Shown: positions 24,093-49,346 of the stretch, piece by piece
Numbering within the stretch: position 1 is the first letter of the stretch
Layout: each line of letters starts with the position of its first letter
Source of the DNA: a bacterium
Lineage (GTDB): Bacteria > Myxococcota > UBA727 > JAUIJE01
Direction: 5' to 3'
DNA: 64,000 bases
Assembly (NCBI GenBank): GCA_030431455.1
Contig: JAUIJE010000005.1
Coordinates: forward strand, 387,460 to 451,459
The notes under the pieces: generated by a model
Seen by the model: the letters and a program-made list of their open reading frames with translations, nothing else
The model's database searches: none
Told to the model about the DNA's origin: nothing
Translations under genes and position numbers: made by a program

Positions 24093-24978
24093 TCAGTCGA
24101 TCCGGAGTTCGACCTTTTCGCGGGCGGCGAAGATCACGAGTTTGCGCTGGTACTTGGCGGCGCGTTCGCGACAGGCGAGGATCTTGGCGTCGACCTCGTC
24201 GTCGGATTGCATCGGGTCGTGGTGGGTGATGGCCAAGCGCTTCACGTCGGCCTCGACCGCGGCGTCGACCAGGGTGGTGGCCCGGGCGTGGCCCCAGCCA
24301 ACCTTCTCCGGGTATTCCTCGTCGGTGTACTGGCCGTCGGCGATGAGCAAGTCGGCCCCGCGCACAAAGTCGATGTACTCCCGCGACACCTTGCGGTGCA
24401 CGCTGGGATTTTTGGCGACCTCATCGCGGTTGTCGAGGGTCATGTCGAGTTCGTTGTCGGTGGCGAACACCACCTTCTTGCCGTGGGCTTCAAAACAATA
24501 GGCCAACGAGCCCCCGGGGTGGGCCTGCACGAACCACGAGACCCGGGCCGGGCCGATGTCCGCCCCGCCGGGCTCGAGGTGGGCGGGCACCAGGTGGGCG
24601 GACAGCTCGGAGAACTCCACCGGGAAATATTCGGACCGCATCTGACCGGACAGCAGGTCAAAATGTGACTGATCGTGTTCGCTCTTGCCGTAAATGTAGA
24701 AGGTGTTGTCGGGCGCGTAGATGGGCGCGAAAAAGGGAAAACCCTGGATGTGGTCCCAATGTGGGTGCGAGAAGAACATGTGGCCGCTGATGGGGCGCTG
24801 CTTCCGCTTGAGCAGGCTTTCGCCGAGCTCCCGCAGGCCCGTCCCGCCGTCGCAAATGTAGAGCGTGTCGTCGATGCGGATTTCGATGCAGGTGGTGTTG
24901 CCGCCGTATTTGCGGGTCTGCCAGCCGGGGGTGGGGATCGAACCGCGCACCCCCCAAAACTTCACGAAGAAGCTCATC
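24093..24978 (-). CDS. MBL-fold metallo-hydrolase
   Basis: The HxHxDH motif is present as SHPHWDHIQG. The start MSFFVKFWGVRGS overlaps the FHA gene stop by 1 nt. The upstream part of the 343 aa track ORF is an extension. Confidence 0.75.
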
Positions 24979-25411
24979 AACCTGCCTCGTTGAAGATGAG
25001 GGTCACGTTGCCGATCTGCACCGCGTCCCCGTGGTGCAACACCGCGGAGTGGACGCGCAGACCGTTGAGATAAATGCCATTGCGGCTGTCGAGGTCCCGC
25101 GCGCAGTATTCGCGCCCGTCGCACTGAATCTCGACGTGCAGGCGCGACAACTCCGGGCTATCCACGGTGAAGTCCGCGGCCTTGCTCCGCCCCACGGTCA
25201 TGCGCTCCCGGGTAAGGACCAAGTCGCGGGGCGCGCCGGGGCCGGTGATCTGCCGCATCGCGGGCGGGCGTTGGGCGTTCTCGGGGAGCAGGAGGCGGAT
25301 GGACGCCTCGGTGGTTTGGCTTTCGCTCCATGACTCCATGGCCTGCTCGGCGGAGATGCCGCTCTCAGGCGCAATCGTCATCGGGTCGTCGGTGTCGTCT
25401 CGCCCCGCCAT
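24977..25411 (-). CDS. FHA domain protein
   Basis: MTVGRSKAADFTVDSPELSRLHVEI...SRNGIYLNG is a canonical FHA fold signature. Confidence 0.8.
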   Translation of the reverse strand: MAGRDDTDDPMTIAPESGISAEQAMESWSESQTTEASIRLLLPENAQRPPAMRQITGPGAPRDLVLTRERMTVGRSKAADFTVDSPELSRLHVEIQCDGREYCARDLDSRNGIYLNGLRVHSAVLHHGDAVQIGNVTLIFNEAG

Positions 25412-25509
25412 GCGGGTTCACCTTAGACCGATCCGCATCAGAAAGGGCAGTCCCCGGCCACGTTTTTGTCCCCGATCACGCTCCCGGAGCGCGACCGGGG
25501 ACACACCGC

Positions 25510-27804
25510 TCAGCGACGGAGGAACGACTTGAGCGCGGCCTCGTCGACCTTGTCCTTGCCCTGGGGCCCGACCACCAGCGTCCGCCCCTTGCCGACGGAG
25601 ACCTTGACCGACCCCCCCAAAGACAGCGCCGCTTTCAGGTCCGGCCGCAACTTGAGCACGAGGAAGTACGCGTCGGAGAACGGCTTGATCACCATTTCGC
25701 GGTCACCGCGTTTGACCTTCCCGTCGACGTACGCCGACCCGTCCCAGGTGAACGAGCGTCCCCCGCGCGCCACCTGTTCGGTCTGGGCGCGTTTTTTCGA
25801 CGCCACCGACCCTTGCCGCAGCGAACCGATCTCCTTGGCCGCCCGCACCGCGGCCTTGCCCGAGTCGGTGCGCAGCGACTCGCCTTTTTTGTCCCGGGAC
25901 CGGCGCCGGGGCGCGGCGGCGCTCGCCGGCGGGGGCGCGGCCCAGTCGTCGGCGGGCGCGGCCTCCTCGGCGTCCCCGTCGAACCCGCGCCCCAAGCCGC
26001 CGCTGCCTTCGCCCCCCCGGGGGGCGTTGCGGAACACGGGTTCGGGCAGGGGGCGGCCGGGCCCGGCGATGGGCGCGTTGGGCTCGACCACGAGGTAGCT
26101 GGTGTACGGGGTCACAATGCCAAAGCGCGTCGCGAGCTGCGTGACCTCGTCGACCAACCCCCGCTGCTCCCCCTTGTCACGGATTTCCGCCAACAGCATG
26201 CCCACCTGGCGCTGGGCCCACAGCCGCGGGATGAACTCCAGGTCGGTCGACAGCTTGGCGAAGGCGACATTGTGGGCAAACGTGCGCGGGCCTTTTTTCA
26301 TCGTGCCCGACAGCGTGACCTTGGCCTTGCCCCCGTCGCGGTACCGGCCGAGCACGACCAGCTGCCCCCCGCGGAACAGGTGGCCGAGCTTGCGCGGGTG
26401 GGTGCCGAACACGCGCACCCCCGACACCGCGAGCGACAGGTCGCTGAGCACCGGGTGGCTGATGCGATCGTAAAACCCCTGCACGTCGTTCTTGAGCGTC
26501 GCGTCCCCCGACGTGTAGAGGGCCATGCCCCCGGCCTCGTCCGCCATCTTGTCGAGGAGCACGGTGTTCACGTCGTCGCCCACCCCGAACACGAACAGGC
26601 GGGCGCCGTCCTTGTTGAAGCCGCCGATTTTCGACAGGAGCGCCTTGGTCTCGGTCTCGCCCACGGTGGGCCGCCCGTCGGTCAAAAACACCACCATGTG
26701 CGGCACCTTGCTCGATCCTGTGACATTGGCGAAGGTCAGCTGCATCGCCTCGTCGATGTTGGTGCCCCCGAGGGGCTCCATCTTGTCCACGAACGCCTTG
26801 GCCTTGTTCACGTTGCCGCGGCTGGCGGACAACATCTTGTCGGAGAACGCCTCCGCGAACCCGCCAAAGGACACGATGTTGAACAGGTCATCGTGGCCCA
26901 GGCGTCCCAGGCAGTAGCTCAGGGCCTCTTTGGTCGCGTCCATCTTCTCGCCCGCCATCGAGCCCGAGGTGTCGACCACGAAGCTCACCCGCTTGCCGAT
27001 GATCTCGCGGTCCCGCATCGCGTCCGAGGGCGAGGCCAACAACATGAAGTACCCGGGCTCGTCCCCGTCGTTGTAGGTGAGCAGGGTCATGCCCACGTCT
27101 TTGTCGTCGACCGACCACAGGAGGACGAAGTCCTCCGCCAATGAAAATGCACCTTTTTCGAAGCTGAGCACCCCGTGGTTGCCGTTGACGCGGGCCGCGG
27201 CTTTGTGGGTCGGGCTGTAGAGGTTCTTGATCGGGAGCTTGGAGTTGACCTTCACCGTGAACGTAAAGTCGTCGAGGGTCCGGCTCGCCATCGCGTCGGT
27301 CTTCATCGGGTAGATGTATTTGTGCGTCCCCGCGTCGTAGTCGACGAGGTGGCTGTACACGAGCTCGACCTTCTGGGTGCCGTTGGCGGGCACGGGAAAC
27401 ACCCGGGCTTGAAACAGCTGGGCGTCGACGTACTCGATGAGGCCCGGGTCCTGCGCGCGCCGCACAATCGACTCGTAGATTTGGCGGGCCTTTTGGCGTT
27501 CGAGGACTTCGCCTTTGACCTTCTTGCCGTTCATCCAGAGGGCGAAGCTGTCGATGCTCGCGCCCTGGGGCAGCGGGAACAGGTAGGTCGCCTCCAGCTG
27601 CCGCCCGGTGGGATTTTTGAACTCCTGGGTGACCTTGGTCTTGGCCCCCCGCTCATTGACCGTGACCTCGACGCGGTGGTGGGTGAGCTCCATCGGGAGG
27701 TGCTGGCTGCCGTTCGCGACCAGGATGCCGATGGCCTTCGCCGGGGTGGCGGCAAAGCAGACCGCGCACGCGGCGGCGATGAAGAGGGGGGCAAGGCGCG
27801 TCAT
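25510..27804 (-). CDS. secreted VIT (vault/inter-alpha-trypsin) + von Willebrand factor A domain protein
   Basis: Start MTRLAPLFIAAACAVCFA (cat 27802-27804, GGGAGGA SD). N-terminal VIT region. vWA MIDAS DTSGSM...TDG. Long C-terminus. Confidence 0.8.
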   Translation of the reverse strand: MTRLAPLFIAAACAVCFAATPAKAIGILVANGSQHLPMELTHHRVEVTVNERGAKTKVTQEFKNPTGRQLEATYLFPLPQGASIDSFALWMNGKKVKGEVLERQKARQIYESIVRRAQDPGLIEYVDAQLFQARVFPVPANGTQKVELVYSHLVDYDAGTHKYIYPMKTDAMASRTLDDFTFTVKVNSKLPIKNLYSPTHKAAARVNGNHGVLSFEKGAFSLAEDFVLLWSVDDKDVGMTLLTYNDGDEPGYFMLLASPSDAMRDREIIGKRVSFVVDTSGSMAGEKMDATKEALSYCLGRLGHDDLFNIVSFGGFAEAFSDKMLSASRGNVNKAKAFVDKMEPLGGTNIDEAMQLTFANVTGSSKVPHMVVFLTDGRPTVGETETKALLSKIGGFNKDGARLFVFGVGDDVNTVLLDKMADEAGGMALYTSGDATLKNDVQGFYDRISHPVLSDLSLAVSGVRVFGTHPRKLGHLFRGGQLVVLGRYRDGGKAKVTLSGTMKKGPRTFAHNVAFAKLSTDLEFIPRLWAQRQVGMLLAEIRDKGEQRGLVDEVTQLATRFGIVTPYTSYLVVEPNAPIAGPGRPLPEPVFRNAPRGGEGSGGLGRGFDGDAEEAAPADDWAAPPPASAAAPRRRSRDKKGESLRTDSGKAAVRAAKEIGSLRQGSVASKKRAQTEQVARGGRSFTWDGSAYVDGKVKRGDREMVIKPFSDAYFLVLKLRPDLKAALSLGGSVKVSVGKGRTLVVGPQGKDKVDEAALKSFLRR

Positions 27805-27892
27805 AAATCCTCCCGGTCGGGGCAAGGCCGACGAGATTGATAACGCATTGATGACCGAAACGATCTGCCCGCGGGCGCGGCCCGCGACGGCT

Positions 27893-28375
27893 TCAGCGGC
27901 GGTGGGCCTCGCGGGCTGTGATCGCGAACAAGATTTTCCCGCCGTCGGTGTTGGGCCCGCCCACCACGAGGGTCCCGCCGTCTTTCACCGCGACCCGGGT
28001 CTTGAACTTCAACGCCTTGATCGTGAGCTCAAACCCGATCATCCCGCCCTTCTGCGGACCGCGGGCTTTGACCACCAAGAACCGCTTGTCGCTCTTTTTG
28101 GGCCCGGGAAACTGGATGCTGACCTGCTCGCCCGCCTTCATCATCGTGTGGTGGTTCTCGAGGAGCTCGAACCGCCGAAACGGCAGCCCGCTCTGCAGGT
28201 CTTTTTTCAGAGGGAGCAGCGCGGGGTCCATGAACGGCGCCCCGTGCACCGCGCCTTTGATCACCCGGACCTCGACGATGACCAGCTCTTTGGCTTTCGC
28301 CTCGGCCTTGCCCGCGAACGCCAGCAGCATCGCGCCGGCACACAACGACAGGGCAAAGCCGCGGCGGGTGGTCAT
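27893..28375 (-). CDS. small secreted hypothetical protein
   Basis: 160 aa. Signal MTTRRGFALSLCAGAMLLAFAGKAEA. Its start overlaps the anti-sigma stop. Confidence 0.5.
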   Translation of the reverse strand: MTTRRGFALSLCAGAMLLAFAGKAEAKAKELVIVEVRVIKGAVHGAPFMDPALLPLKKDLQSGLPFRRFELLENHHTMMKAGEQVSIQFPGPKKSDKRFLVVKARGPQKGGMIGFELTIKALKFKTRVAVKDGGTLVVGGPNTDGGKILFAITAREAHRR

Positions 28376-28377
28376 GG

Positions 28378-29385
28378 TCAGGTGTCCTGCTCCTCGGGTT
28401 CTCCCACCCAGATGATGGTGATGTTGGACGCGTCGGTCTCGAAGACCGCGGTCGTGGGCACACCGGCCTGAATGCTTTGTACATCACTGTGGTTGTCGCG
28501 CAGAAGGGTCAAATCCGTCGCCACCGCCAAGGTGCGCACATCGGCGCTCGGCTCCCACGACTCGGGGGCCGGCTCGCCGCCGACAAAAAAGAACGCCGCG
28601 GCCGCCGCCGAGGCGAACGCGAGGGGGATGCCCACCGGCCGCAACCCCCCGAATAGACGGGAGAACCAGCCGCCCGTGGGGGCGGCCGGGCGCGCGTGGG
28701 CCGACGCCCGGGCCTCGTTTTGGGTGTGCTTTTCGATCGCCGACAGCGCCGCGGCGGCCGCTTTTTGGGCCTCGGGGGCACGGGCGTAGGCCGCGCCGAG
28801 GGCGGCCACGAGATCGGACTGCGCCACCAGCGACAAGAACGCCTCTTGCCGGGCGGCGGCGTGGGTCTCGTCGGTGAGCAGCTGGACCAAGGCCGGCCGA
28901 TCGACCGCTTCCCCGTCGAGCAAGGCCGCGGCCAGCTCTTGGGCGGCTTTGTCGTCGGCGAGCACGGCCGCGACCTGAGCGGCCACGTCCACGCCAGAGA
29001 CCAGGGCCGCGGTCTCCAGGGTGGCGCGGGCGGCGAGCGCGAGGTGGGCAAAATCTTCCGCCCCGTCCCCGCCGCGCATGAGCTCGACGAGCCGGGCGGT
29101 GCCCGCGTCGGTCAACGCCCCGTCGAGGGCTTGGGACATCAGGACCCGGCCGTCGTCGACCCCGGCGGGGGCGATCTGGGCCATGACCGCGTCGGCGACG
29201 TCAATGTCGCCCGCCGTCGCCCAGGACACCGCGCCCATCGCGGCGAGCTCGTCGACCAACGCGGGGTGCTCCTCGAGCGCGGCCATCAGCAACGCCTCGG
29301 TGTCGCGGTCGAGTTCACCGTCGACGAACGCACTCATCCACATGCGGAGGGTGTCGAGCTCGGTTTTTCCGTTTTCGCCTGTCAT
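28378..29385 (-). CDS. putative anti-sigma factor (membrane-anchored)
   Basis: It lies immediately downstream of the ECF sigma gene. The N-terminal cytoplasmic region is followed by a central hydrophobic segment (PVGIPLAFASAAAAAFFFV). No strong family motif, so this is assigned by position and topology. Confidence 0.5.
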   Translation of the reverse strand: MTGENGKTELDTLRMWMSAFVDGELDRDTEALLMAALEEHPALVDELAAMGAVSWATAGDIDVADAVMAQIAPAGVDDGRVLMSQALDGALTDAGTARLVELMRGGDGAEDFAHLALAARATLETAALVSGVDVAAQVAAVLADDKAAQELAAALLDGEAVDRPALVQLLTDETHAAARQEAFLSLVAQSDLVAALGAAYARAPEAQKAAAAALSAIEKHTQNEARASAHARPAAPTGGWFSRLFGGLRPVGIPLAFASAAAAAFFFVGGEPAPESWEPSADVRTLAVATDLTLLRDNHSDVQSIQAGVPTTAVFETDASNITIIWVGEPEEQDT

Positions 29386-29426
29386 CGTGCATCCCCAAGG
29401 AGGACCCTCCTCCTCGTACCAAGACG

Positions 29427-30242
29427 TTACGACCCGCCGTTGCCTTCACCATCCGCGGCCCCAGATCCGCTTTCTGATGCGGTTTGACCCACATGGTCGC
29501 CCTTGCCGATGTCGGCCAATGTCTGCCCTTCGGTGAGCCCGAGGTACGGGCGCAGGGCGGCCTGGAGATTTTTGCGGGCGTGGAACAGCCGGCTCATGAC
29601 CGTTCCCTTCGGAATTTCAAGACTTTGGGAGATTTCTTCGTAGCTCATGCCCTCGATTTCGCGCAGCAAAATCACCGCTTTGTGGTCATCGGACAGGGTG
29701 GCCATCGCTTTTTCGATCTGGCCGGCCAGCTCCTGGTTCTTCACGTTCTGCAGCGGGTTGGCCCCGCCGAGCTTGGGCGCGATGTCGGCCTGGGCAAAGA
29801 TGCTGTCCTCGGTGAGCTCGAACCCTTTGACCTCTTCGAAATCGACCTTTTTCCGGCGCGCCTGGGAGCGCTTCTTGTCGATGCAGAGGTTCACGCAGAT
29901 GCGGTAGAGCCAGGTCGAAAACGCGCTGTTGCCCTCGAACGCGTCGAGCTTGCGGTGCGCCTTGATGAACGCGTCCTGGACGACGTCCATCGCCTCGTCC
30001 CGGTCGCGCAGCATGCCCACCGCCACCGCGAACAAGCGGCCCTGGTTCATTTCCACCAGCTTGCGGAACGCGCGCGCGTCCCCCGCCTTGGCCTCGTCGA
30101 CGAGGGTGCCCTCGATCTCCCGGGCCCGGGTGCGCTTTTGGTCCTTCTCGGCCGCGCGCTCTTTGACCTTGTCGACGACCGACTCGACGTCCTTTTCGGA
30201 GAGGGGCGCTTGCTGCTCGGGCTGCGCCGCGGTCTTGGTCAT
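29427..30242 (-). CDS. ECF-family RNA polymerase sigma factor (sigma-70 regions 2 and 4)
   Basis: Region 2 DVVQDAFIKAHRKLDAF...FSTWLYRICVN. Region 4 LREIEGMSYEEISQSLEIPKGTVMSRLFHARKNL. Start MTKTAAQ with AGGAGG SD. Confidence 0.85.
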   Translation of the reverse strand: MTKTAAQPEQQAPLSEKDVESVVDKVKERAAEKDQKRTRAREIEGTLVDEAKAGDARAFRKLVEMNQGRLFAVAVGMLRDRDEAMDVVQDAFIKAHRKLDAFEGNSAFSTWLYRICVNLCIDKKRSQARRKKVDFEEVKGFELTEDSIFAQADIAPKLGGANPLQNVKNQELAGQIEKAMATLSDDHKAVILLREIEGMSYEEISQSLEIPKGTVMSRLFHARKNLQAALRPYLGLTEGQTLADIGKGDHVGQTASESGSGAADGEGNGGS

Positions 30243-30361
30243 CGAGCCTCCTGGGCACTGCGCCCGCCCCCTTGTAGCACCTGACCCCACAGCGATTCAA
30301 AGGCCCCAGGTCACGCCGCGACCGATGCCTGCCGGCGCGGAAGAGACGTTAGAGTGCCCCC

Positions 30362-33300
30362 ATGGCCGCCCGCCCTTCGTCTTTGGGTCATCAAATCGAC
30401 CGCGCCCGGCGCAGCCTGCGTCTGTTCGGCGCGGTCGAGACCGCGCTTGCGGGGTTGCTCGCGGGGGCGTTTTTTCTCGTCATCGCCCTGGTGCTCGTCG
30501 ACGTGCTGCCGTTTTCGTACGGGACCCGGGCGGTGCTGTGGGCGCTCGGTCCGGTCGCGTTTGTGCTCACCGGCGCGGGCCTGTTTGTGCGCCGCCTGCT
30601 GCCCCTGCGCGACGACGAGGCGGTGGCGGGGGCGCTCGAGCGGGGCGCGGCCCGGCGCGGGACCACGTTGTGGGGCGAAGCGGTCAGCGCGGCCGAGCTG
30701 TTGCGCGGCCAGGGCACAGGTTCGCCGACGATGAAGAACGCGTTCATCGCCGACGTGGCCGCCCGGTTGAGCCGGGCCGGGGCCCACCGCGGGCTCGTCG
30801 AGCTGTCCTGGCGCAGCGCGCGGGTGGTGGTGGCGATCGCGGTGCTCGCCGCCGGGGCGTTCTATGCCGCGTCGACCACCGCGGTGTTTCAGGATCGGTG
30901 GGCGCAGTTGTTCGACGACGAGGTCGCGGAAAAGCGCATCGCCGAGCGGGCCCTGTTGCGGGTGCCGCTGGTGACCAACCTGACGGTGACGCTGTCGTTC
31001 CCCGCGTACATGGAGCGTGGGCCGGAGACCGTCGAGGGCAGCTCGGGCGACGTGGCCGCCCCGCGGGGCACCTTCGTCGACCTCAGTGGGCTGTCCGACC
31101 GGCCCATCGGCCGGGCCGCGCTGCTGTACGGGGACGCCGAAATCGCGCTCACCGTCGAGGACCAGCGACGGGTGTCGGGGCGTTTTGTGCTCGAGGAGGC
31201 CGGCACCTACCGGTTTGTGGTCCACGAGCTCGACGGGGACAAGGTGCTCGACCCCGTGGCCCACAAAGTCACATTGGTGGCGGACCGGGTCCCGGAGGTG
31301 GTGCTCGCCGCCCCCCCCGAGGACCGGGTGGTGCAACTCGACGAGGACATCGAGGTGTTGTTCTCGGGCACGGACGACTTCGGCCTGACCGGTTTTCGCC
31401 TCGTGGTGCGGCGGCAACAAAGCGGCGGCCAGGGCTTCGAGAAGTCCCTGATGGAGCTGTCCCCCGCGCTGGCCAAAGCCGGGGGCCGGGGCACGTTCAC
31501 CCCCGCCGAAGCCGGCGCCAAAGCCGGGGACAAGTTGAGCGTGTACGTCGAGGCGCTCGACAACGACACCATCGCCGGGCCCAAGGTGGGCCGCAGCGAG
31601 ACCCGGGTGCTCACGGTGTTCTCCGCCGCGTTGCACCACCGGGAGTTGATCGACCTGCAGCAGGCCCTGCTCGACGCCATGCTCGAGTCGCTGGCCGACG
31701 AGCTCGAACACCCCGTCGACGCGGCCGCCGCCGAGCGCGCCGACCCCGCGCAGGGCCAGGCCCTCGACGAGCACGAACGCATCGGCAACCGCCACGCGGC
31801 CATGCTCGAAGCCTTCGGCCGGGTGCTGACCCACCTGCGCACCGACGAGCTCGCCCCCGACGACATCAAAGCCGCGCTCACCAAAATGAGCCGCGAGCTG
31901 AGCGGGGTGGTGGACAAGTCGCGGGAGTTGGTGAGCGCGGCCAAAAAGACCCTGCAGAGCGGGCGTGCCCTCCCCGCCTACTTCTGGCGCGATTTGGGCA
32001 AAGCCAACAAGAAGCTCGTGGCCGCGCTCGAAAAAGACGTGCTCTACCTCGACGACCTCTTGACCCGGCAGCGGCTGGAAGAGGTCGAGACGCTGACCGC
32101 GGAGATGCGCGACGCCCAAAAGAACCTCAAGGAGCTGATCGAGCAGTACAAAAAGAGCCCCGACGACCAGACCCGCGAGGCCATCCTCGAGGAGATCCGG
32201 GCCCTGCGGGAGCAGATGCAAAAAATCGCCGAGCGCCTCGCCGAGCTGCGCCGGGACATCCCCGACGAGCACATCAACAAAGAGGCCATGCACCAAGCCG
32301 AGCAGATGCAGGACGCGCAGAGCATCGATGAGCTCATCGAGCAGGGCAAGGTCGACGAGGCCTTGCAGCAGCTCGAACAGATGATGCAACAGACCGAGCA
32401 GCTGCTCGACGGGCTGTCGGAGAGCCGGCAAGAGTTCGGCGATGAGAGCTACCGGGAGCTGGCGGAGAAGATGGAAAAGTTCGGGGCCGAGCTGCAAGCG
32501 GTGCAGGCCGAGCAAGAGCAGCTCCTCGACCAGAGCCAGCGCATGCTCGATGCGGCCCAGAAGCGCGCCCTCGAAAAGACGATGAAACAAATGCAGGAGG
32601 TTTGGCCCGACCTTTTGGAAAAGGCCAAACAAGCGCAAAAGGACCTCCAGGGCATCGACGACTCACGGCTGTTTCCGCACGAACGGGAGGACCTCGCCGG
32701 GGCCCAGTCGCGGGTCGATGACCTGGTGCGGGCGCTCGAAGCCGAAGACGTGGCCGACGCCCAGCAGAGCGCGGAGGACGCCGAGCGCATGGTGCGCACC
32801 AGCGAGCAGGACGTGGCCGACCGGGTGCGGGGCCGGTTCGGCAGCCGTGACCCGTCGATGAAGGACGCGGCCGCCCGGCTCAAAAAGGCGCGCCCCCGGG
32901 TCGAGGACGTGCGGGACGAACTCGACAAGCTCTTGCCCGACCCCCGCAAGTTCCTCGACGAGGGCCAACGACAGCTGATGAAAAAGAACGCCGAACGCCA
33001 GCAGCAGCTCAAGAAGAGGACGCAGCAGCTGCAAAAACAGATGCGCGACATCGACAAGGAGGCGCCCATCTTCGGGGAAGAGCCGCAACAAATGTTGCAG
33101 CGTGCCGGCGAACAAATGGGCATGGCCCAGAACCGGCTGCGCAGCCAGCGCCTGCGGGAGGGCAAGTCTTCGCAGGGCCGCGCGTCCCAAGAGCTCAAGG
33201 CCCTGGGCGAGCGCATGCAGCAGATGGCGCAACAGCAAGGCCAGTCGGGGGGGGTGCCGATTCCTCTGCCCGGCGGCGGCAGCGACGGGGGCGGCGACCA

Positions 33301-33469
33301 GGAGGGCAACGGCCGCCACACCGGCAAAGAGGACGTGAAGATCCCCGGGGCGGAGCAGTACCGGGTCCCGGACGCCTTCCGCAAGGACATCCTCGACGCC
33401 ATGCGCGAGGACGCGCCGGAGAATTACCAGCGCGAGGTGAAAAAATACTACGAGGAGTTGGTCAAATGA
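30362..33469 (+). CDS. large membrane-anchored coiled-coil protein (DUF4175-like)
   Basis: 1035 aa. Two N-terminal TM helices, a beta-rich middle, and ~500 aa of Q/E/K-rich coiled coil. C-terminal motif PENYQREVKKYYEEL. Confidence 0.6.
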   Translation: MAARPSSLGHQIDRARRSLRLFGAVETALAGLLAGAFFLVIALVLVDVLPFSYGTRAVLWALGPVAFVLTGAGLFVRRLLPLRDDEAVAGALERGAARRGTTLWGEAVSAAELLRGQGTGSPTMKNAFIADVAARLSRAGAHRGLVELSWRSARVVVAIAVLAAGAFYAASTTAVFQDRWAQLFDDEVAEKRIAERALLRVPLVTNLTVTLSFPAYMERGPETVEGSSGDVAAPRGTFVDLSGLSDRPIGRAALLYGDAEIALTVEDQRRVSGRFVLEEAGTYRFVVHELDGDKVLDPVAHKVTLVADRVPEVVLAAPPEDRVVQLDEDIEVLFSGTDDFGLTGFRLVVRRQQSGGQGFEKSLMELSPALAKAGGRGTFTPAEAGAKAGDKLSVYVEALDNDTIAGPKVGRSETRVLTVFSAALHHRELIDLQQALLDAMLESLADELEHPVDAAAAERADPAQGQALDEHERIGNRHAAMLEAFGRVLTHLRTDELAPDDIKAALTKMSRELSGVVDKSRELVSAAKKTLQSGRALPAYFWRDLGKANKKLVAALEKDVLYLDDLLTRQRLEEVETLTAEMRDAQKNLKELIEQYKKSPDDQTREAILEEIRALREQMQKIAERLAELRRDIPDEHINKEAMHQAEQMQDAQSIDELIEQGKVDEALQQLEQMMQQTEQLLDGLSESRQEFGDESYRELAEKMEKFGAELQAVQAEQEQLLDQSQRMLDAAQKRALEKTMKQMQEVWPDLLEKAKQAQKDLQGIDDSRLFPHEREDLAGAQSRVDDLVRALEAEDVADAQQSAEDAERMVRTSEQDVADRVRGRFGSRDPSMKDAAARLKKARPRVEDVRDELDKLLPDPRKFLDEGQRQLMKKNAERQQQLKKRTQQLQKQMRDIDKEAPIFGEEPQQMLQRAGEQMGMAQNRLRSQRLREGKSSQGRASQELKALGERMQQMAQQQGQSGGVPIPLPGGGSDGGGDQEGNGRHTGKEDVKIPGAEQYRVPDAFRKDILDAMREDAPENYQREVKKYYEELVK

Positions 33470-35430
33470 CGCGCTCCTTGGTGTTCGCCTGTGCAGTGGC
33501 ATGCGGGCTTGCCTTTGCCGGGCCCGCGGCGGCCCAAGACGCGGCCGGCCTCGGCGACAAGCTCGAACGGGTCCAGCGCCTGCTCGACGACTGGCAGCTG
33601 GTGGAGGCCGCGGCCATCGCCGCCGAGCTCGAGCGCACGTTGCCCGACGTGCCCCCGGTGCAGGCGGTGCTCGGGGAGGTGAAGTTCCACCAGGGGGATT
33701 ACGAAGGCGCGCGCCGGCTGCTGCGCCGGGCCTCGGAGGGGGGCAGCGCCGACCCCCTGCTGCTTCAGCTCGCCGAGAGCACCTACGAGGAGACCGCGGG
33801 GTTTGTGAGCGTCGAGAGCGAACACTTCGTGCTGCGCACCCCCGCGGGCAAAGACGAGATCCTGGCCGACACCGCGCTGTGGGCTTTGGAGAAGGCCTAC
33901 GCGGCCCTGACCCAGGCGTTCGATTACGAGGTCCCGCACAAGATCCCCGTCGACGTGCTGCACGACGCGCGGGGCTTGGCCGCGGTGAGCACCCTGACCG
34001 TGCAAGAGATCGAGACCTCGGGCACGATTGCGCTCTGCAAGTTCAACCGGTTGATGATCACCAGCCCCAAGGCCCTGGCCCGGGGCTATGCCTGGTTGGA
34101 CACGCTGTCGCATGAGCTCATCCACCTCATCATCAGCGAGAAGTCGCGCAACACCGTGCCCATCTGGCTGCACGAGGGGCTCGCCAAATACATGCAGTCG
34201 CTTTGGCGTGGACAGCGGGGCCTCGCCCTCACCCCCGCGTCCGAACAGTTGCTGGCCCAGGCGGTGAAGAAAAACGAGCTCATCACCTTCGAGCAGATGC
34301 ACCCGTCCATGGCCAAGCTCCCGTCGCAGGAAGCCACCGCCCTCGCCTTCGCTGAGGTGTTCACCGTCATCGAGTACCTGATGAGCGATGCCGTCACCCA
34401 AGGCAAAAAGAGCCCCTACGCGGTGACCAACACCCTGCTCGACACCCTGGCCACGGGCAAAAACATGGACCGCTCGCTCCAAGCCTCGGCCGGCACCAAC
34501 CTCGCCGGCCTGCAGAAACGTTGGAAGCGATACTTGAAGAAACGCCCGTTCAAACTCAAGGCCGACGACAAGCCGCGCCCCCTGCGTTTTGTGCACAACG
34601 CCCGCAAGGGCAACGCGTCCGTGGACGAGGAAGAGGACGAGGCCGCGCTGTTCGAGACCACCGACGACAAAGCCAAAAAGTTCGTGCGGCTGGGCAATCT
34701 TCTGCGCGGCCGGGCCCGGCTCAAGGCGGCCACGGTGGAATATGAAAAAGCCCGCGGCCGGCTCAAATCGATGAGCCCCAGCTTGAACAACCGGGTGGCC
34801 GGCATCTACCTCCGGCTCGACGACACCGCCGGGGCCGCGCGCATCCTCGACGAGACGGTCAAGGTCTACCCCGACGACCCCCAGACCCGGGTGTTGCGCG
34901 GCCGGCTCTTTTTGGCCGAGAAAAAGTACAAACAAGCCCGCGGCGAATACGAGCGCGCCCTCTGGGAAAACCCCTTCCACCCCGAGGTGCACGCGGGGCT
35001 GTACCAAATCGCGGACAAGACCAACGACGCTTCGCTCAAAAAGAAGGCCGAACGGAATCTCGGCCTGCTCTCGGGCCACGCCAAAGAAAACCCCACCGCG
35101 CGCTTCGCCCTCGCCGAGGACGGCGAGCCCTTCGGGACCTTGTCGCTCTCGAGCGACCCGTGGGGCGAGCTGTTCATCGATGGGCGGCCCACGGGCATGA
35201 TCACCCCGGTCACCGACCTCCCGCTGCGGCCCGGGACCTATCTCATCCGGGTCGAGGACCGCGTGAGCGGCCAGGTGCAGGCGCGCTCGATCACGGTGCA
35301 AGCAGGCCAAGCGGTGCGCGAGCGCTTCACCCTGCAAGACCTCGACGACGCCGCCCGCCAAGACATCGCCGCCCGGGAGGACAAGGCCCAGGGCGCGACC
35401 TTGCCCGACGCGGGCCCCGCCCACCCGTGA
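33466..35430 (+). CDS. secreted TPR-repeat protein with an HExxH (peptidase MA-like) motif and a C-terminal PEGA domain
   Basis: Signal peptide present. SHELIHLIISE. TPR-like helices. C-terminal FGTLSLSSDPWGELFIDGRPTG is PEGA-like. ATGA overlap with the upstream gene. Confidence 0.65.
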   Translation: MTRSLVFACAVACGLAFAGPAAAQDAAGLGDKLERVQRLLDDWQLVEAAAIAAELERTLPDVPPVQAVLGEVKFHQGDYEGARRLLRRASEGGSADPLLLQLAESTYEETAGFVSVESEHFVLRTPAGKDEILADTALWALEKAYAALTQAFDYEVPHKIPVDVLHDARGLAAVSTLTVQEIETSGTIALCKFNRLMITSPKALARGYAWLDTLSHELIHLIISEKSRNTVPIWLHEGLAKYMQSLWRGQRGLALTPASEQLLAQAVKKNELITFEQMHPSMAKLPSQEATALAFAEVFTVIEYLMSDAVTQGKKSPYAVTNTLLDTLATGKNMDRSLQASAGTNLAGLQKRWKRYLKKRPFKLKADDKPRPLRFVHNARKGNASVDEEEDEAALFETTDDKAKKFVRLGNLLRGRARLKAATVEYEKARGRLKSMSPSLNNRVAGIYLRLDDTAGAARILDETVKVYPDDPQTRVLRGRLFLAEKKYKQARGEYERALWENPFHPEVHAGLYQIADKTNDASLKKKAERNLGLLSGHAKENPTARFALAEDGEPFGTLSLSSDPWGELFIDGRPTGMITPVTDLPLRPGTYLIRVEDRVSGQVQARSITVQAGQAVRERFTLQDLDDAARQDIAAREDKAQGATLPDAGPAHP

Positions 35431-35448: not shown

Positions 35449-36564
35449 TCACCGCATCGTGATGCGCAACGTCTCGCGGGCGGTGGCGAGGGCCTCGTCG
35501 AGCCCGGCCCGGGTCTCGGCAAAAAACTGGGCATAGCCAACGTCCTGGCCGACCCCCACCCGCCGGGCCACGTCGTCGCCGACCGCGACCTTGAGCTTGA
35601 GCTTTTTCACCGCCGGGAGCGCGCGGACCGCGTCCTCGCCCTCGATGCGCGCGACCTGGCCCGCGCCCGGGTGCAGCACCCAGCCCGCGGCGAAGCCTTG
35701 GCGCGCTTCAGGGAACGAGACCGCGCGGCCGAGCTCGACGAGGGCGAAGGTGTGCCAGGCGTTGAACCCCCAGGCGTTCGACATCGTGTCCATGATGTAG
35801 CCGCCGGGGGGCCGAAGCGCGACCTCGCCGAGCAAGGGCCCCTCCGCGGTCAGATACACCTCGAGATGGGTCAAGCCCCAGGTGATGTGCATCGCGCGCA
35901 GCACCTGGCGATTCAGCGCCCGGACCTGCGCCAGCACCGCGTCGTCGAGCGCGGGGGGGATGACATTGAGCGCGCCCTTGACCGCGTAGCCGGTGAAGCT
36001 CTCGAACCGCACGGCGCCGTCCACCACGAAGGACTCCACGGACATCTCCGGCGCGTCCACGAACCGCTCCAGCATCATTGTGCCACGGGGCGCGCCGGCC
36101 AAAGCCTCCTCGAGCTCTTGCGCGGTCTTGGCGAAGCGAATGCCCCGGCCGCCGCTCGACGCGCGGGCCTTGACCACCACCGGGCTCTTCAGCGCGGCCA
36201 TGACCTCTTGGGCATCGCGCATGTCGGCCGCGTCCAGGAACGCGGTCATGGGCACCCCGCGTTCGGCGAGGTGACGCTTCATGGTCAGCTTGTCGTGGCA
36301 GCGCAGCGAGATGGTCATCGGCGCGGCCCGGGCCGAGAGCGCCCGCCGGGCATACGCCGCGGGCACCACCGCGCTCTCCCCGCCCGCGATGACGTGGCTG
36401 AACCGCCCGGCGAGACCGGGCGCGGCCTCGGCCCATTTTTCGCGCGTGCGCGGCAGCGGCTGGTCCTTGGGCCAGACCGTGACCTCGACGTGGTCGAGCT
36501 TTTTCAGGGCCCGCAGCAGCCCCTGCCGCGGCCCGAGCACCAGGACGCGGTCGGGCTGGTTCAC
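35449..36564 (-). CDS. ATP-grasp domain protein
   Basis: 371 aa. SPVVVKARASSGGRGIRF, ERFVDAPEMSVESFV and a Mg-binding E..N region are ATP-grasp-like. Substrate unknown. Confidence 0.7.
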   Translation of the reverse strand: MNQPDRVLVLGPRQGLLRALKKLDHVEVTVWPKDQPLPRTREKWAEAAPGLAGRFSHVIAGGESAVVPAAYARRALSARAAPMTISLRCHDKLTMKRHLAERGVPMTAFLDAADMRDAQEVMAALKSPVVVKARASSGGRGIRFAKTAQELEEALAGAPRGTMMLERFVDAPEMSVESFVVDGAVRFESFTGYAVKGALNVIPPALDDAVLAQVRALNRQVLRAMHITWGLTHLEVYLTAEGPLLGEVALRPPGGYIMDTMSNAWGFNAWHTFALVELGRAVSFPEARQGFAAGWVLHPGAGQVARIEGEDAVRALPAVKKLKLKVAVGDDVARRVGVGQDVGYAQFFAETRAGLDEALATARETLRITMR

Positions 36565-36908
36565 CCCGGGGGCCAGGACAGGTCCCGCCCGCCGATGACG
36601 TGCAAGTGGATGTGAAACACGGACTGGCCCGCGCCGGCCCCGACGTTCATCACCAGGCGGTAGCCGGACTCGACCACGCCCTTTTTCTCCGCCACCTGTT
36701 GCGCGGCGAGGTAGAGGCGCCCGACCAGCTCCTGGTCTTGGGCCCCGAGGTCGTGGGCCGTGGCAATGTGTCTGCGTGGGATGACGAGCACGTGACAGGG
36801 CGCGCCGGGGTTGATGTCCTCGAACGCGTACACGTGCTCGTCGCTGTACACCTCGGCGGAGGGAATTTGGCCATCTAGGATTTTGCAGAACAAACAGTCG
36901 CTCATCAT
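36561..36908 (-). CDS. HIT (histidine triad) family nucleotide hydrolase
   Basis: Start MMSDCLFCKI. Histidine triad HIHLHVIGG. The track ORF extends upstream but lacks a signal there. Confidence 0.85.
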   Translation of the reverse strand: MMSDCLFCKILDGQIPSAEVYSDEHVYAFEDINPGAPCHVLVIPRRHIATAHDLGAQDQELVGRLYLAAQQVAEKKGVVESGYRLVMNVGAGAGQSVFHIHLHVIGGRDLSWPPG

Positions 36909-38368
36909 GTCCCCTGGGGTCGCTTCTCGAGGAGGTTCACGCCTTGTTCGACGAGGGTCCCGGCCCGCAGGATGCTCGCCTCGCCCATGGCCGGGCCCAC
37001 CAGCTGCACCCCCAGGGGCAAGCCCGCGTCGGTGAACGCGACGTTGACGGACAGGCCGCACACCCCGGCCAGGCTGACCCCGATGGTGAACACATCGGAC
37101 AGGTACATTTTCACGGGGTCGTCGGTCTTTTCCCCGATGCCGAACGCGGCGGTGGGCGCCACCGGCGTGAGCAGCACGTCGACGTCGGCGAAGGCCTGGT
37201 CGTAGTCGCGCCGGATCAGGGTGCGCACCTTTTGCGCCCGCAGGTAGTAGGCGTCGTAATAGCCCGTGGACAGCACGTAGGTGCCGAGCAGGATGCGCCG
37301 CTTGACCTCGGGGCCGAACAGCTCGCCGCGGGTTTTGCGGTAGAGCGACTCGAGGCCGCCCTCTTCGCCGCGGCGGGGCCCGTAGCGCACGCCGTCGTAG
37401 CGGGCGAGATTGGACGAGGCCTCGGCGGTGGCCGCGATGTAGTACGTGGGCACCGCGAGGTGGGCGTGGGGGAGCGAGACCTCGACCACGGTGGCGCCAG
37501 CCTCGCGCAAGGTCTGCTCGGCCTTGTGCTGGGCCGCGAGCACGTCGTCGTCGCAGCCGTCTTGATTTTGGTATTCGCGGACCACGCCGACCTTGAGCGG
37601 GCGGTCCTGGTCACAGGCCGCGGCGTAGTCTTCGACCGGGGCGTGGCTCGAGGTCGCGTCCCGCCCGTCGGGACCCGCCAACGCCGCGAGCAAATGGGCA
37701 CAGCCTTTGACGTCCCGCGCGAATGGACCGACCTGGTCGAGGGAGGACGCAAAGGCCACTGCCCCAAAGCGCGACACCCGGCCGTAGCTCGGCTTCAGCC
37801 CGGCCACGCCACAGAACGCCGCGGGCTGGCGCACCGAGCCGCCGGTGTCGGTGCCGAGCGCCCCGTAACATTGGGTCGCGGCCACCGCGGCGGCGCTGCC
37901 CCCCGACGAGCCCCCCGGGGTCCGGCTCTTGTCCCAGGGGTTGGTGGTGCCGCCGTAGGCGGAATGTTCGGTCGAGCTGCCCATGCCGAACTCGTCGAGG
38001 TTGGTCTTGCCCACCACCACCGCCCCCGCCGCGCGCAGCTTGTGCACCACGGTGGCGTCGAACGGCGAGGTGTAGCCCTCGAGGATGCGGCTGCCCGCGG
38101 TGGTGGGGCCGGTGACGTCGACGATGTTGTCCTTCACCGCCACGGGCACGCCGTCGAGCGGTCCGCGGGGTTGCCCGTTTGCCCGGCGCGCGTCGGCGGC
38201 GGCGGCGGCCTCTTCGGCCGCGGCGCGGTCTACGCGCAAAAACGCGCGCAAGGCGTCGTTGCCCTGGTCGATGCGGTCGAGGCATTGCCCGGTGAGCGCC
38301 ACCGAGGTGGTGGCGCCCTCGTCGAGCGCGGCGGCGGCAGCGGCCAGGGTGTAAGGGCCCGCGCTCAT
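36905..38368 (-). CDS. gatA: Asp-tRNA(Asn)/Glu-tRNA(Gln) amidotransferase subunit A
   Basis: Amidase signature GGSSGGSAAAVA and the KDN triad region. Start MSAGPYT (cat 38366-38368) overlaps the gatC stop (ATGA). The upstream 170 aa of the track ORF are spurious. Confidence 0.9.
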   Translation of the reverse strand: MSAGPYTLAAAAAALDEGATTSVALTGQCLDRIDQGNDALRAFLRVDRAAAEEAAAAADARRANGQPRGPLDGVPVAVKDNIVDVTGPTTAGSRILEGYTSPFDATVVHKLRAAGAVVVGKTNLDEFGMGSSTEHSAYGGTTNPWDKSRTPGGSSGGSAAAVAATQCYGALGTDTGGSVRQPAAFCGVAGLKPSYGRVSRFGAVAFASSLDQVGPFARDVKGCAHLLAALAGPDGRDATSSHAPVEDYAAACDQDRPLKVGVVREYQNQDGCDDDVLAAQHKAEQTLREAGATVVEVSLPHAHLAVPTYYIAATAEASSNLARYDGVRYGPRRGEEGGLESLYRKTRGELFGPEVKRRILLGTYVLSTGYYDAYYLRAQKVRTLIRRDYDQAFADVDVLLTPVAPTAAFGIGEKTDDPVKMYLSDVFTIGVSLAGVCGLSVNVAFTDAGLPLGVQLVGPAMGEASILRAGTLVEQGVNLLEKRPQGT

Positions 38369-38685: not shown

Positions 38686-40284
38686 TCAGCCCTCGGCGAG
38701 CTTTTGTTTGGCTTGGTCGGCGTCGCTGCCGCCCCGGTAGCTCTTTTTGCGGCGGGACGCGCGCCGCCCGCGGATGATCAACGTGACCAGGCCCCCGAGG
38801 AGCATGAGCGGGAAGAGCACCTTTTTGGCCTGACCGAAGGGGCCGCCGTCGGGCAGCGCCTGCTGACAACCGCACATCATGTCGTCCCCGACGCCGGGCT
38901 CGGGCTCGGGGCTCGGCTCGGGCTCGGGCACGCCCGCGTCGGTGACGGGGCGGTTGGCGTCGGTGACCCGCACCTCGATGGGGCTCAACACGAGCTCGTC
39001 ATCGGCGTCGGCGTCGGACAGGTCGCAGGTCACGAACGTGACCTGCTCCGCGGGGCCCACCGCCACCGCCAAGGACAGGTCCGGGCCGCGCTGGTCGTGC
39101 AATGTGCGGGTGGTGTCCGCCCCCTGCCCGGTGACGAAGGCCAGGCCCAACCGCCGCGGGGGCTCGGCGATGCTGCGCACGTCGACGAGCACATCGAGCC
39201 CCCGGGCCGCGGGCGCGGTGGTGGAGAACGCGAAACAGCCCAGGGCATAGGGCGCGGCGTCGTCGGCCAGCCCCGCGAGCAGGGCCCCGTTGAGGCTCGC
39301 CGGGGCCAGGGCCCGCGTGCGCAAGAAGTGCTCGGCGTTGAGCTCGTCGGCGATGACCGGTCCGTCGCCGGGCACCGCTTTGGGCCCCACCAAGGTGCGC
39401 CAGGTCGCGAAATCGAGCAGGATGTCGGGCACGGTGCGGCCCGTTTCCGCCGCGAAGGCGTCCATCCAGTCGGGCTCGTTGGCCATGACCTCGTCCCCCT
39501 GAACGCTGCCGTCCCACAACCGGCGGATGAAGGTCCCGTCCCCGTCGCCGTGCACCTCGTCGAGATAGTGAATGAACAGCCCGGCCCCGTACTCGGGGAG
39601 CAGCCCGAACTCGCCCTGCTCGATCGCCCAGGCAATGCCATTGCTAAAAATCGACAGCGCGGGGACAGACTGAAAGTCCTCGATGTTCTGTTTGTACCCG
39701 ATGGTCTCGGGGTAGGCGGAGAACTCCTGAAACACCGCCCCGGCCTCGAAGAACATCAGGCTCTCGCGGCCATCGATGCCGAACTGCAGGGCGTGCTGAA
39801 ACTCGTGGGCCACGAACGCTTCGATCTCGTTCACGTTGGGATCGATCTGCATGTGGCTCGGCCGCGAGACCCGACCGTCGGCATCGTCCTCGTCGTCGTC
39901 GGCCACGGTGACCGCCCCCGCCCCCGCCAGGCCCGCGAAGTAGACATCGTAGGCGTCGCTGCCCCCGCGGCCGTCGTCGCTCGGCGGGGGCGAAAACCCC
40001 ATGCCCACCACCTGGGCGGTCCACGCCTGCTCCAACAGGTCGAGCACCTCGCCCGCGCGGACCGCCGCTGCCTCCGCCGAGTAGTGCACCCGAAGCGGGT
40101 AGCTCGCCGAGTCGACAAACAGATTCGGCTCGTAGGGCCGGTCTTGGACCGCGAGCCAAGGCAGGGCCTGCGTCCGCCGGCTATTCTCCAGTGCCATTGT
40201 GGCGCAAGGCCGGGCCCCGGCGGGGACGGCCGCGCTCACCAAGGCGACCAACACCGCGCCCGTGAGCCAGGCCGGGGTCTTCAC
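38686..40284 (-). CDS. secreted HExxH-motif protein (putative metalloprotease) with a MYXO-CTERM-like sorting tail
   Basis: Signal peptide present. HEFQHALQ. Acidic D-rich insert. C-terminus CGCQQALPDGGPFGQAKKVLFPLMLLGGLVTLIIRGRRASRRKK (Cys motif + TM + basic tail). Confidence 0.6.
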   Translation of the reverse strand: MKTPAWLTGAVLVALVSAAVPAGARPCATMALENSRRTQALPWLAVQDRPYEPNLFVDSASYPLRVHYSAEAAAVRAGEVLDLLEQAWTAQVVGMGFSPPPSDDGRGGSDAYDVYFAGLAGAGAVTVADDDEDDADGRVSRPSHMQIDPNVNEIEAFVAHEFQHALQFGIDGRESLMFFEAGAVFQEFSAYPETIGYKQNIEDFQSVPALSIFSNGIAWAIEQGEFGLLPEYGAGLFIHYLDEVHGDGDGTFIRRLWDGSVQGDEVMANEPDWMDAFAAETGRTVPDILLDFATWRTLVGPKAVPGDGPVIADELNAEHFLRTRALAPASLNGALLAGLADDAAPYALGCFAFSTTAPAARGLDVLVDVRSIAEPPRRLGLAFVTGQGADTTRTLHDQRGPDLSLAVAVGPAEQVTFVTCDLSDADADDELVLSPIEVRVTDANRPVTDAGVPEPEPSPEPEPGVGDDMMCGCQQALPDGGPFGQAKKVLFPLMLLGGLVTLIIRGRRASRRKKSYRGGSDADQAKQKLAEG

Positions 40285-40775
40285 AACGTCTCCCGAAAGG
40301 ACCGCCCCGCGAACGCCAGGTCGGTGATCTCAAACTCGGTCTCGCCTTTGGGGCGCACCACCGTCACCAGGTCCCCGACCTGTTTGCCCAGCAGCGCCTT
40401 GGCCACCGGCGCGCGCTCGGAGATCGTGCCCTGTTTGCTGTCCGCCTCGCCTTCGCCCACGATGGTCCACACTTTGACCTCGCCCTCTTCGTCCTCGACC
40501 GTGACCGTGGCCCCGAACTGCACCCGGTCGCCGGTGAGGCTCGCGGGGTCGACCACGGTGACGTTCTTCAGCAAACCAGAAAGGTACGAAAGCCGCTTGT
40601 CGATCTCCCGCAGCTTCTTTTTGCCGTAGATGTACTCGGCGTTCTCCGAGCGGTCTCCCTCGGCCGCGGCGTCGGCGACACCTTTGACCACTTTGGGGCG
40701 CTCTTTGGTCAACAGCTCCTCCGCCTCTTGGGAGAGGCGGGCGTATCCGTCCTTGGTCATGTTCTTTGCGGCCAT
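40281..40775 (-). CDS. greA: transcription elongation factor GreA
   Basis: Start MAAKNMTKDGYARL. GreA coiled-coil plus FKBP-like C-terminus (VTVVRPKGETEFEI). The rest of the 428 aa track ORF is spurious. Confidence 0.85.
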   Translation of the reverse strand: MAAKNMTKDGYARLSQEAEELLTKERPKVVKGVADAAAEGDRSENAEYIYGKKKLREIDKRLSYLSGLLKNVTVVDPASLTGDRVQFGATVTVEDEEGEVKVWTIVGEGEADSKQGTISERAPVAKALLGKQVGDLVTVVRPKGETEFEITDLAFAGRSFRETL

Positions 40776-40789
40776 GCCGCGGCCTACCG

Positions 40790-46062: not shown

Positions 46063-48452
<2,390 letters not shown>

Positions 48453-49341: not shown

Positions 49342-49346
49342 GCGCG

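Follow-up and report, generated by a model that had tools for sequence, protein, structure and literature searches.

A window of 64,000 nucleotides (nt) from a Myxococcota genome (contig JAUIJE010000005.1, positions 387,460 to 451,459; G+C content about 69%) harbors two consecutive genes, hereafter gene 1 and gene 2, which encode a membrane-anchored protein of the DUF4175 family and a secreted zinc peptidase embedded in tetratricopeptide repeats (TPR), respectively (Table 1). Our favored reading, to which we accord about an even chance, is that both products constitute a co-translated periplasmic module in which the zinc protease is docked via its TPR arrays on a rod-like partner, and that this module represents one arm of an envelope system resembling the Bat operons, which comprise MoxR, DUF58 and BatA proteins. 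The evidence consists of the domain anatomy of both proteins, an intact active site, a conserved coupling of both genes and their recurrent linkage to MoxR-DUF58-BatA genes as well as to a trio of genes around a sigma factor of the extracytoplasmic function (ECF) type; topology, substrate and physical docking are inferences, as are the direction of the sigma link and the role of the module in the physiology of the cell.

Both open reading frames (ORFs) are genuine genes rather than shadow ORFs of a high-GC genome because full-length homologues exist at 43-63% identity, and the codon-position G+C of gene 1 amounts to 0.74, 0.41 and 0.90 at positions 1, 2 and 3, respectively. The overlap of both genes, which had been part of the original prediction, is read directly in the sequence: the stop codon of gene 1 and the start codon of gene 2 share the tetranucleotide ATGA at 33466-33469, and a GAGGAG Shine-Dalgarno sequence at 33452-33457 precedes the ATG of gene 2 by 8 nt. 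This tight coupling extends to the relatives of the window. A scan with one genome per species yielded 80 loci from Myxococcus, Corallococcus, Archangium, Anaeromyxobacteraceae, Polyangia, many metagenome-assembled genomes and three anammox Planctomycetota, and the six-frame ORFs of all loci were searched with hidden Markov models (HMMs) built for this analysis. In 68 of the 70 loci with enough upstream DNA, the peptidase gene is immediately preceded by a DUF4175 gene. Stop and start codons overlap in 73 of 74 species loci, either as [AG]TGA (67 loci) or as T[GA]ATG with a 1-nt overlap (six loci). Gene 2, for which 1719 homologues were retrieved, is the more conserved partner, with many homologues at 55-63% identity versus 43-47% for gene 1. 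The DUF4175 family is large, comprising 4,658 clusters at 50% identity in a full HMMER scan with its profile (E <= 1e-30), and the window copy is an ordinary member. In Myxococcus xanthus DK1622, the orthologues of the pair are ABF86674.1 and ABF86356.1.

The three loci from anammox Planctomycetota (Brocadiaceae/Planctomycetia; L051, L055 and L058) encode peptidase homologues of about 37% identity. L058 retains the DUF4175 gene upstream of the peptidase gene, separated by a gap of 163 nt instead of an overlap, and no DUF4175 gene was detected within the 4.4 kb of upstream DNA in L051. These copies may have been acquired from Myxococcota by horizontal transfer. Moreover, distant DUF4175-like genes occur in L091 (9307-14277) and L092 (9315-15117), the best local alignment covering about 20% of the query. 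Both are translationally coupled to an upstream DUF4159 gene, and in L091 a TPR-only gene, with weak hhalign support for this TPR partner, is coupled downstream. This arrangement hints at a wider DUF4159/DUF4175/TPR module beyond Myxococcota.

The composition of gene 2 from TPR repeats, a SHELIHL motif and a PEGA domain, as originally proposed, is recovered in profile searches and in an AlphaFold (AF2) model of high quality (predicted local distance difference test, pLDDT, 91.7; predicted template modelling score, pTM, 0.88). The catalytic domain matches Peptidase_MA_2 (PF13485; E 7.9e-16, 58.9 bits against a gathering threshold of 32.4) at residues 178-358. Its HELIH core is encoded at 34111-34125, with SHELIHL spanning residues 215-221, and the third zinc ligand is present as E237 (34174-34176) within WLHEGLAKY, which yields the spacing HExxH-X16-E. 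No substitution of H216, E217, H220 or E237 occurs in two alignments, of 16 and 45 sequences, that extend to 33-38% identity, and a GTIAxCK strand motif is also conserved among the homologues. The model displays a thermolysin-like alpha/beta fold whose closest counterparts are gluzincins of families M30, M9 and M1. Judged by residues and predicted fold, the site is an intact gluzincin site. Unlike M30 hyicolysin and lugdulysin, M9 collagenases and M1 aminopeptidases, with which gene 2 shares a sequence identity of only 6-14%, and which likewise belong to clan MA(E), its catalytic domain sits between two TPR arrays. Profile matches from the PDB to consensus TPR proteins and OGT cover residues 395-520, and a PDB sequence search with gene 2 returned TPR proteins only and no relative outside the TPR parts. 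The protein starts with a Sec-type signal peptide and is unlikely to be a lipoprotein because Cys residues are not conserved among its homologues. The PEGA match (PF08308; E 5e-4) falls just under the cut-off, with 20.3 versus 20.8 bits, while several homologues do score as PF08308, and the model features a seven-stranded sandwich at this site followed by a final helix. Since the domain is absent from the homologues of Myxococcus (593 aa), L007 and L009, it is regarded as a clade-specific accessory domain.

Gene 1 matches Pfam DUF4175 (PF13779; E 1.1e-11, 44 bits against a gathering threshold of 27.3) with residues 27-1026 aligned to model positions 22-813 of 825, and its homologues carry PF13779 and the database name "DUF4175 family protein". 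It reaches 28.9 bits against TIGR02302, whose cut-off is 394, with residues 869-1025 alone aligning, and by this score it is not the TIGR02302 equivalog; the C-terminal tail is the only part of the protein that matches both DUF4175 and TIGR02302. Instead of the two transmembrane helices initially assumed, a hydropathy scan gives three hydrophobic segments. The N-terminus is basic (five K+R versus one D+E), as is the loop of about 75 residues between segments 2 and 3 (residues 77-152; 12 K+R versus eight D+E). Because of these basic stretches, the positive-inside rule predicts an N-in, C-out topology, which would expose residues 174-1035 to the periplasm.

An AF2 model of gene 1, built on an alignment of 30 sequences (pLDDT 82.9, pTM 0.50), subdivides this presumably periplasmic part. 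Residues 204-419, whose domains had been overlooked in the first reading, resemble tandem fibronectin type III (FnIII) or immunoglobulin (Ig) modules in a Foldseek comparison with the PDB (e.g., 3pdd, E 1.3e-6) and form the second most conserved part of the protein (40-44% identity). They are followed by a rod of approximately 16 helices of 22-66 residues each. The earlier description of this region as a coiled coil of about 500 residues thus stands with regard to its Glu/Gln/Lys-rich helices but not to its architecture, as the model shows four-helix bundles, reminiscent also of talin rod domains, rather than a single long coiled coil. A linker (residues 962-1003) with a pLDDT below 50 and a Gly content of 29% connects the rod to the tail, which forms two terminal helices in the model and ends in ...FRKDILDAMREDAPENYQREVKKYYEELVK. 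The predicted conservation of this KYYEEL tail is confirmed, since among 28 homologues it ranks first of all regions, with a mean identity of 60% versus 27-44% elsewhere. A search with the tail alone returned fragments only, and no match to the DUF4175 protein emerged from a PDB sequence search.

The affiliation with Bat-like systems derives from the gene order in relatives. In L007, L008 and L009, whose homologues are more distant (29-32% identity), genes for DUF4175, the peptidase, MoxR (AAA_3), DUF58 and a BatA/von Willebrand factor A (vWA) protein follow each other in this order on one strand. MoxR-DUF58-BatA genes are adjacent to the pair in 8 of 63 species and located 2-8 kb away in a further 6 of 63. 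The moxR gene follows the pair directly in L007, L008, L009, L020, L024, L029, L060, L062, L078, L081 and L085, and genes for DUF58 and BatA-N/vWA proteins are present in these loci as well. In at least eight species of different clades, moxR immediately adjoins or overlaps the peptidase gene in the same orientation (offsets estimated at about -35 to +180 nt), and this operon-level linkage spans protein identities of about 37-41%.

A second recurrent neighbor is the divergent ECF operon, consisting of genes for an RpoE/SigW-like sigma factor, a single-pass anti-sigma factor whose periplasmic tail is about 65 residues long, and a secreted protein of 160 residues, termed p160. The 119-nt spacer between the sigma gene, which starts at 30242 on the minus strand, and gene 1 was correctly described in the original prediction. 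In L001 and L004, whose gene 1 homologues are 43-47% identical to the window copy, p160, anti-sigma and sigma genes likewise lie on one strand and the DUF4175-peptidase pair on the other. In 16 of 47 species, an orthologous ECF sigma gene (HMM E-values of 1e-55 to 1e-143) faces away from DUF4175, usually together with p160. When the peptidase sequences were clustered by the unweighted pair group method with arithmetic mean on p-distances, ECF-linked loci fell into four separate clades, two of which also retain MoxR-DUF58-BatA. The full cluster of ECF trio, pair and MoxR-DUF58-BatA occurs in eight loci (L008, L020, L024, L029, L060, L062, L078 and L085). The co-occurrence of pair and ECF cluster, for which a check had been suggested, therefore holds as a recurrent but not as an obligatory link, given that the pair is found without a nearby sigma cluster, which had been named as refuting the original prediction, in 31 of 47 species, including M. 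xanthus. This linkage argues for a functional tie, the pair being at most a candidate target of the sigma factor.

With respect to the promoters, the motif TGAAT-N14-18-CGTC is enriched on the sigma-gene strand, where 11 of 19 ECF-linked loci contain it versus at most six in shuffled sequences. No strict match exists on either strand of the window spacer, the minus strand of which contains TGAAT without CGTC; a promoter scan found no match to the sigma-70 consensus in the 119-nt spacer, and the terminator-like matches of the same scan are intragenic and uninformative. Alignment of the intergenic spacers of the window clade revealed no conserved block. In one clade (L041, L048, L061, L066 and L079), the spacer between ECF and DUF4175 genes is longer, at 330-580 nt. 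It contains a conserved inverted repeat, TTCACA-N6-7-TGTGAA, which overlaps the TGAAT -35 element of the sigma promoter, and a conserved GGGGAATAATACC box upstream of DUF4175; the repeat might bind a regulator, and the box might serve as a housekeeping promoter.

In the proposed mechanism, the three helices of gene 1 would anchor the rod in the inner membrane, from where the protein would project two Ig-like domains, the four-helix-bundle rod, the Gly-rich linker and the conserved tail into the periplasm. Gene 2 would be exported by means of its Sec signal peptide as a predicted catalytically competent gluzincin, and the peptidase may be attached to the rod protein through its two TPR arrays, with the conserved tail as the likeliest docking site. 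The outcome would be a membrane-tethered and thus positioned protease, which may cleave or trim envelope proteins. This module would serve as the periplasmic arm of a MoxR-DUF58-BatA system for envelope maintenance (Bat-like, with an MRP-type MoxR), where it might fill the place of the TPR proteins BatC and BatE and of the large BatD of Bacteroides. In the window genome, the ATPase genes would have moved away while the pair stayed head-to-head with the operon of sigma, anti-sigma and p160, which probably couples it to envelope-stress signalling. With ECF-linked loci in four clades, two of them still with MoxR-DUF58-BatA, the simplest reading is that an ancestral cluster comprised the ECF trio divergent from DUF4175-peptidase-MoxR-DUF58-BatA and was fragmented in different ways, the window clade having retained the ECF side and lost the ATPase side.

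Several observations weigh against this assignment. Searches of the 64-kb window with MoxR, DUF58 and BatA proteins (tblastn) found none of the three, so that the window holds, of the components of a Bat-like operon, the TPR-repeat partner only (gene 2 with its two TPR arrays); a nearby MoxR is absent in 49 of 63 species, M. xanthus included; and neither gene 1 nor gene 2 matches BatD (PF13584) at E <= 0.1. In the loci with a 2-8 kb distance, the genes that separate the pair from moxR, among them an S9-like hydrolase and an ABC-2 permease, are unrelated and were rejected as partners. In the ECF-linked loci, TGAAT-N14-18-CGTC was never found in the direction of DUF4175. Furthermore, the function of Bat/MoxR-MRP systems is itself unsettled, and the assignment therefore provides a context rather than a biochemical role. 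The original proposal of a Bat-like assembly consequently holds insofar as MoxR-DUF58-BatA genes follow the pair in relatives, but its basis, the neighboring vWA protein, does not: this protein is of the VIT-vWA rather than the BatA type and has no counterpart in 90 related loci.

Another possibility, which we rate as unlikely though deserving of attention, is that the pair is a self-sufficient protease on a scaffold, engaged in quality control in the manner of BepA or in remodelling of matrix or cell wall, and that its occasional adjacency to MoxR or ECF genes reflects nothing more than shared regulation of envelope functions. The pair is the sole invariant unit among the loci and stands alone in the sampled Myxococcus, Corallococcus and Archangium genomes, with a MarR gene upstream in M. 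xanthus, and the unrelated nature of the inserted genes would fit as well. This explanation is at odds with the repeated abutment or overlap of peptidase gene and moxR across clades, and distant DUF4175-like genes also adjoin DUF4159, a Bat-associated family.

Somewhat less probable still is that the pair belongs to the ECF system proper, either because its two genes form the main regulon of the divergent sigma factor and serve as effectors in envelope stress, or because the peptidase is a site-1 protease or sensor that frees sigma by cutting p160 or the anti-sigma factor, the latter in its short periplasmic domain. The divergence of the same trio in 16 of 47 species and four clades is in favor of this view, as are the clades that lost MoxR but kept the trio with the pair, namely the window clade and that of L066, L061, L079 and L048; in addition, the tail of the anti-sigma factor and the secreted p160 would both be reachable for a periplasmic protease. 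It is opposed by the 31 species in which the pair lacks a nearby sigma cluster, by the MarR gene in the place upstream of the M. xanthus pair, and by the orientation of the promoter motif, which is confined to the sigma-gene strand and has no strict match in the window.

A bolder version of the favored reading, in which MoxR loads or remodels a periplasm-spanning, talin-like rod with its tethered protease via DUF58-BatA and the ECF trio reads out the state of this assembly, is rather improbable. If it were true, the system would be a previously unrecognised ATP-driven machine for envelope surveillance, and Bat/MoxR-MRP operons would gain a concrete periplasmic effector.

The notion that gene 1 is a cytoplasmic SMC/Rad50-like or cytoskeletal coiled-coil protein with a function in chromosome maintenance or cell division, an outcome that had been named as contradicting the original prediction, is exceedingly improbable: it draws on weak matches to Rad50 (E 6e-4, 18 bits), SMC (E 6.5e-3) and the tail of ZorA (E 4e-5), and on the DUF4175 label once given to the Acinetobacter division protein AdvA (PMC7481262), whereas the curated SMC and Rad50 cut-offs lie at 700 bits or more against the observed 14-18 bits, the matches are compositional and cover Glu/Gln-rich helices alone, Walker A/B ATPase head domains are absent from gene 1, the three hydrophobic segments would place the rod outside the cytoplasm, the model contains four-helix bundles and Ig domains, the partner protein carries a signal peptide, and the DUF4175 domain of AdvA precedes residues 203-238 and is close to two predicted transmembrane helices (PMC7481262). 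A role in anti-phage defence was rejected likewise, since PADLOC gave only compositional matches of 20 and 13 bits between gene 1 and the coiled-coil tail of ZorA; none of its defence models, vWA-MoxR included, matched gene 2, the VIT-vWA protein, p160 or the anti-sigma factor.

Table 1. Features of the gene pair and of the adjacent ECF operon (positions in the window)
Feature	Position	Strand	Size or residues	Basis or remark
Gene 1, DUF4175-family gene	30362..33469	+	1035 aa	
Membrane anchor, three hydrophobic segments	30443..30880	+		Kyte-Doolittle 19-mers
Hydrophobic segment 1	30443-30499	+	residues 28-46	Kyte-Doolittle 2.83
Hydrophobic segment 2	30533-30589	+	residues 58-76	Kyte-Doolittle 2.03
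Hydrophobic segment 3	30824-30880	+	residues 155-173	Kyte-Doolittle 1.93
Two tandem Ig/FnIII-like beta-sandwich domains	30971..31618	+	residues 204-419	AF2 strands, pLDDT ~87-95
Glu/Gln/Arg/Lys-rich helical rod	31625..33244	+	residues 422-961	~16 helices
Gly-rich disordered linker and C-terminal helical tail	33245..33466	+	residues 962-1003 and 1004-1035	
Translational coupling site	33452..33469	+		GAGGAG ribosome-binding site, 8-nt spacer, ATGA overlap
Gene 2, secreted TPR/gluzincin peptidase/TPR/PEGA protein	33466..35430	+	654 aa	
Sec-type signal peptide (MTRSLVFACAVACGLAFAGPAAA/Q)	33466..33534	+		sole hydrophobic 19-mer of gene 2
N-terminal TPR array	33532..33795	+	residues 23-110	TPR_19 at 44-98; helix pairs, pLDDT 96-98
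Gluzincin peptidase domain	33805..34545	+	residues 114-360	alpha/beta domain in model
C-terminal TPR array	34621..35088	+	residues 386-541	TPR_12, TPR_14, TPR_16; model helices
PEGA-like beta-sandwich	35134..35331	+	residues 557-622	seven strands, pLDDT ~88-96
Intergenic region, ECF sigma gene/DUF4175 gene	30243..30361	.	119 nt	divergent
Divergent ECF operon	27893..30242	-		sigma, anti-sigma, p160
RpoE/SigW-like sigma factor	29427-30242	-		Sigma70_r2, r4_2 and ECF matches; NCBIfam
Single-pass anti-sigma factor	28378-29385	-		weak zf-HC2 match
p160, secreted protein	27893-28375	-	160 aa	translation
VIT+vWA protein	24977-27825	-	771 aa	resembles TIGR03788, E 3.5e-78, below cut-off

The remaining genes of the neighborhood do not accompany the pair. 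The VIT-vWA protein, which resembles the "marine proteobacterial sortase target" family TIGR03788, is encoded downstream of the ECF operon in this genome alone and, in view of its absence from the 90 related loci, was rejected as a partner; the same applies to the small FHA-domain protein whose gene follows, because the FHA matches in other loci are unrelated proteins. On the other side, an ATP-grasp/L-amino-acid-ligase-like gene and a HIT-family gene (35449-37061, minus strand) run towards the peptidase gene; the facing stop codons are just 18 nt apart, and no terminator-like hairpin is present. Neither gene is kept beside the pair in relatives. Farther away, a 428-aa ORF (40281-41567, minus strand) contains GreA/GreB N- and C-terminal domains in its last ~160 residues only, which points to an over-called start or else to a long extension at the N-terminus. 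Another ORF of about 1114 aa (46066-49407, minus strand) ends in a protein-arginine deiminase domain (PAD, PF03068; E 6e-67, residues 714-1110) of the vertebrate type, which is uncommon in bacteria.

Operons of MRP-type MoxR proteins, which typically unite genes for DUF58, TPR and vWA proteins, have an effect on the tolerance of stress and the integrity of the envelope (PMC11834572, PMC5700661). For comparison, BatI of B. fragilis, cmdA-D (RL3499-RL3502) of Rhizobium leguminosarum and BB0170-BB0176 of Borrelia were considered. As in these operons, the pair of the relatives is co-operonic with MoxR (AAA_3), DUF58 and a membrane protein with BatA domain and vWA; its components are located in the envelope, and a TPR partner, which is standard there (PMC11834572, PMC5700661), is present. 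The differences are that this TPR partner holds an intact gluzincin peptidase, that a DUF4175 rod protein takes the place of BatD, that the pair precedes moxR instead of following it, that an ECF sigma trio is often attached and that the window is devoid of MoxR, DUF58 and BatA genes. Gene 1 and the alphaproteobacterial DUF4175/TIGR02302 proteins have in common a size of about 850-1050 aa, two to three transmembrane helices at the N-terminus, an extended helical exterior part of low complexity and the C-terminal tail. In the literature, DUF4175/TIGR02302 proteins appear only in passing (PMC9275681, PMC6842974, PMC7481262): a relative in Rhodobacter sphaeroides is among the genes with CenR binding sites (PMC9275681), and a DUF4175-family mutant of Azorhizobium overproduces exopolysaccharide, according to a citation of Sato 2016 in PMC6842974.

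The ECF trio resembles RpoE-RseA-RseB modules in that one operon encodes an RpoE/SigW-like sigma factor together with a single-pass anti-sigma factor and, as third component, a small secreted protein, and relatives of the window contain a SigW-like autoregulatory motif, TGAAT-N16-CGTC. Unlike in those modules, the anti-sigma factor and p160 of the window match no curated family. With regard to gene 2, BepA (YfgC) of E. coli combines a zinc protease of family M48 with a TPR domain in one periplasmic protein and polices the assembly of outer-membrane proteins. As a periplasmic HExxH protease whose TPR domain docks on an envelope machine, it may be considered a functional analogue of gene 2. Both families concerned have already been named, as DUF4175 family and as peptidase MA family metallohydrolase, respectively. 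The statement that the assembly is not a described complex nevertheless holds in the literature searched: publications on DUF4175 and TIGR02302, on the M. xanthus accessions and on Bat/MoxR in Myxococcus yielded no description of the pair, and no paper was found on how its genes are coupled or on their linkage with MoxR/BatA and ECF genes. The locus is an as yet undescribed version of a Bat-like system that is known but poorly understood.

In general, MoxR-DUF58-vWA-TPR ("Bat") operons are widespread and affect stress tolerance, envelope integrity and virulence, with effects observed in Bacteroides, Francisella, Rhizobium, Riemerella and spirochaetes, yet to our knowledge no biochemical output of them has been established. 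The version found in Myxococcota would tie these operons to a predictable catalysis, that of an apparently intact zinc peptidase, and to a large rod protein anchored in the membrane. The DUF4175 family with its approximately 4,700 clusters thereby gains a first genomic context, and the orthologues in the genetically tractable M. xanthus provide a direct experimental handle.

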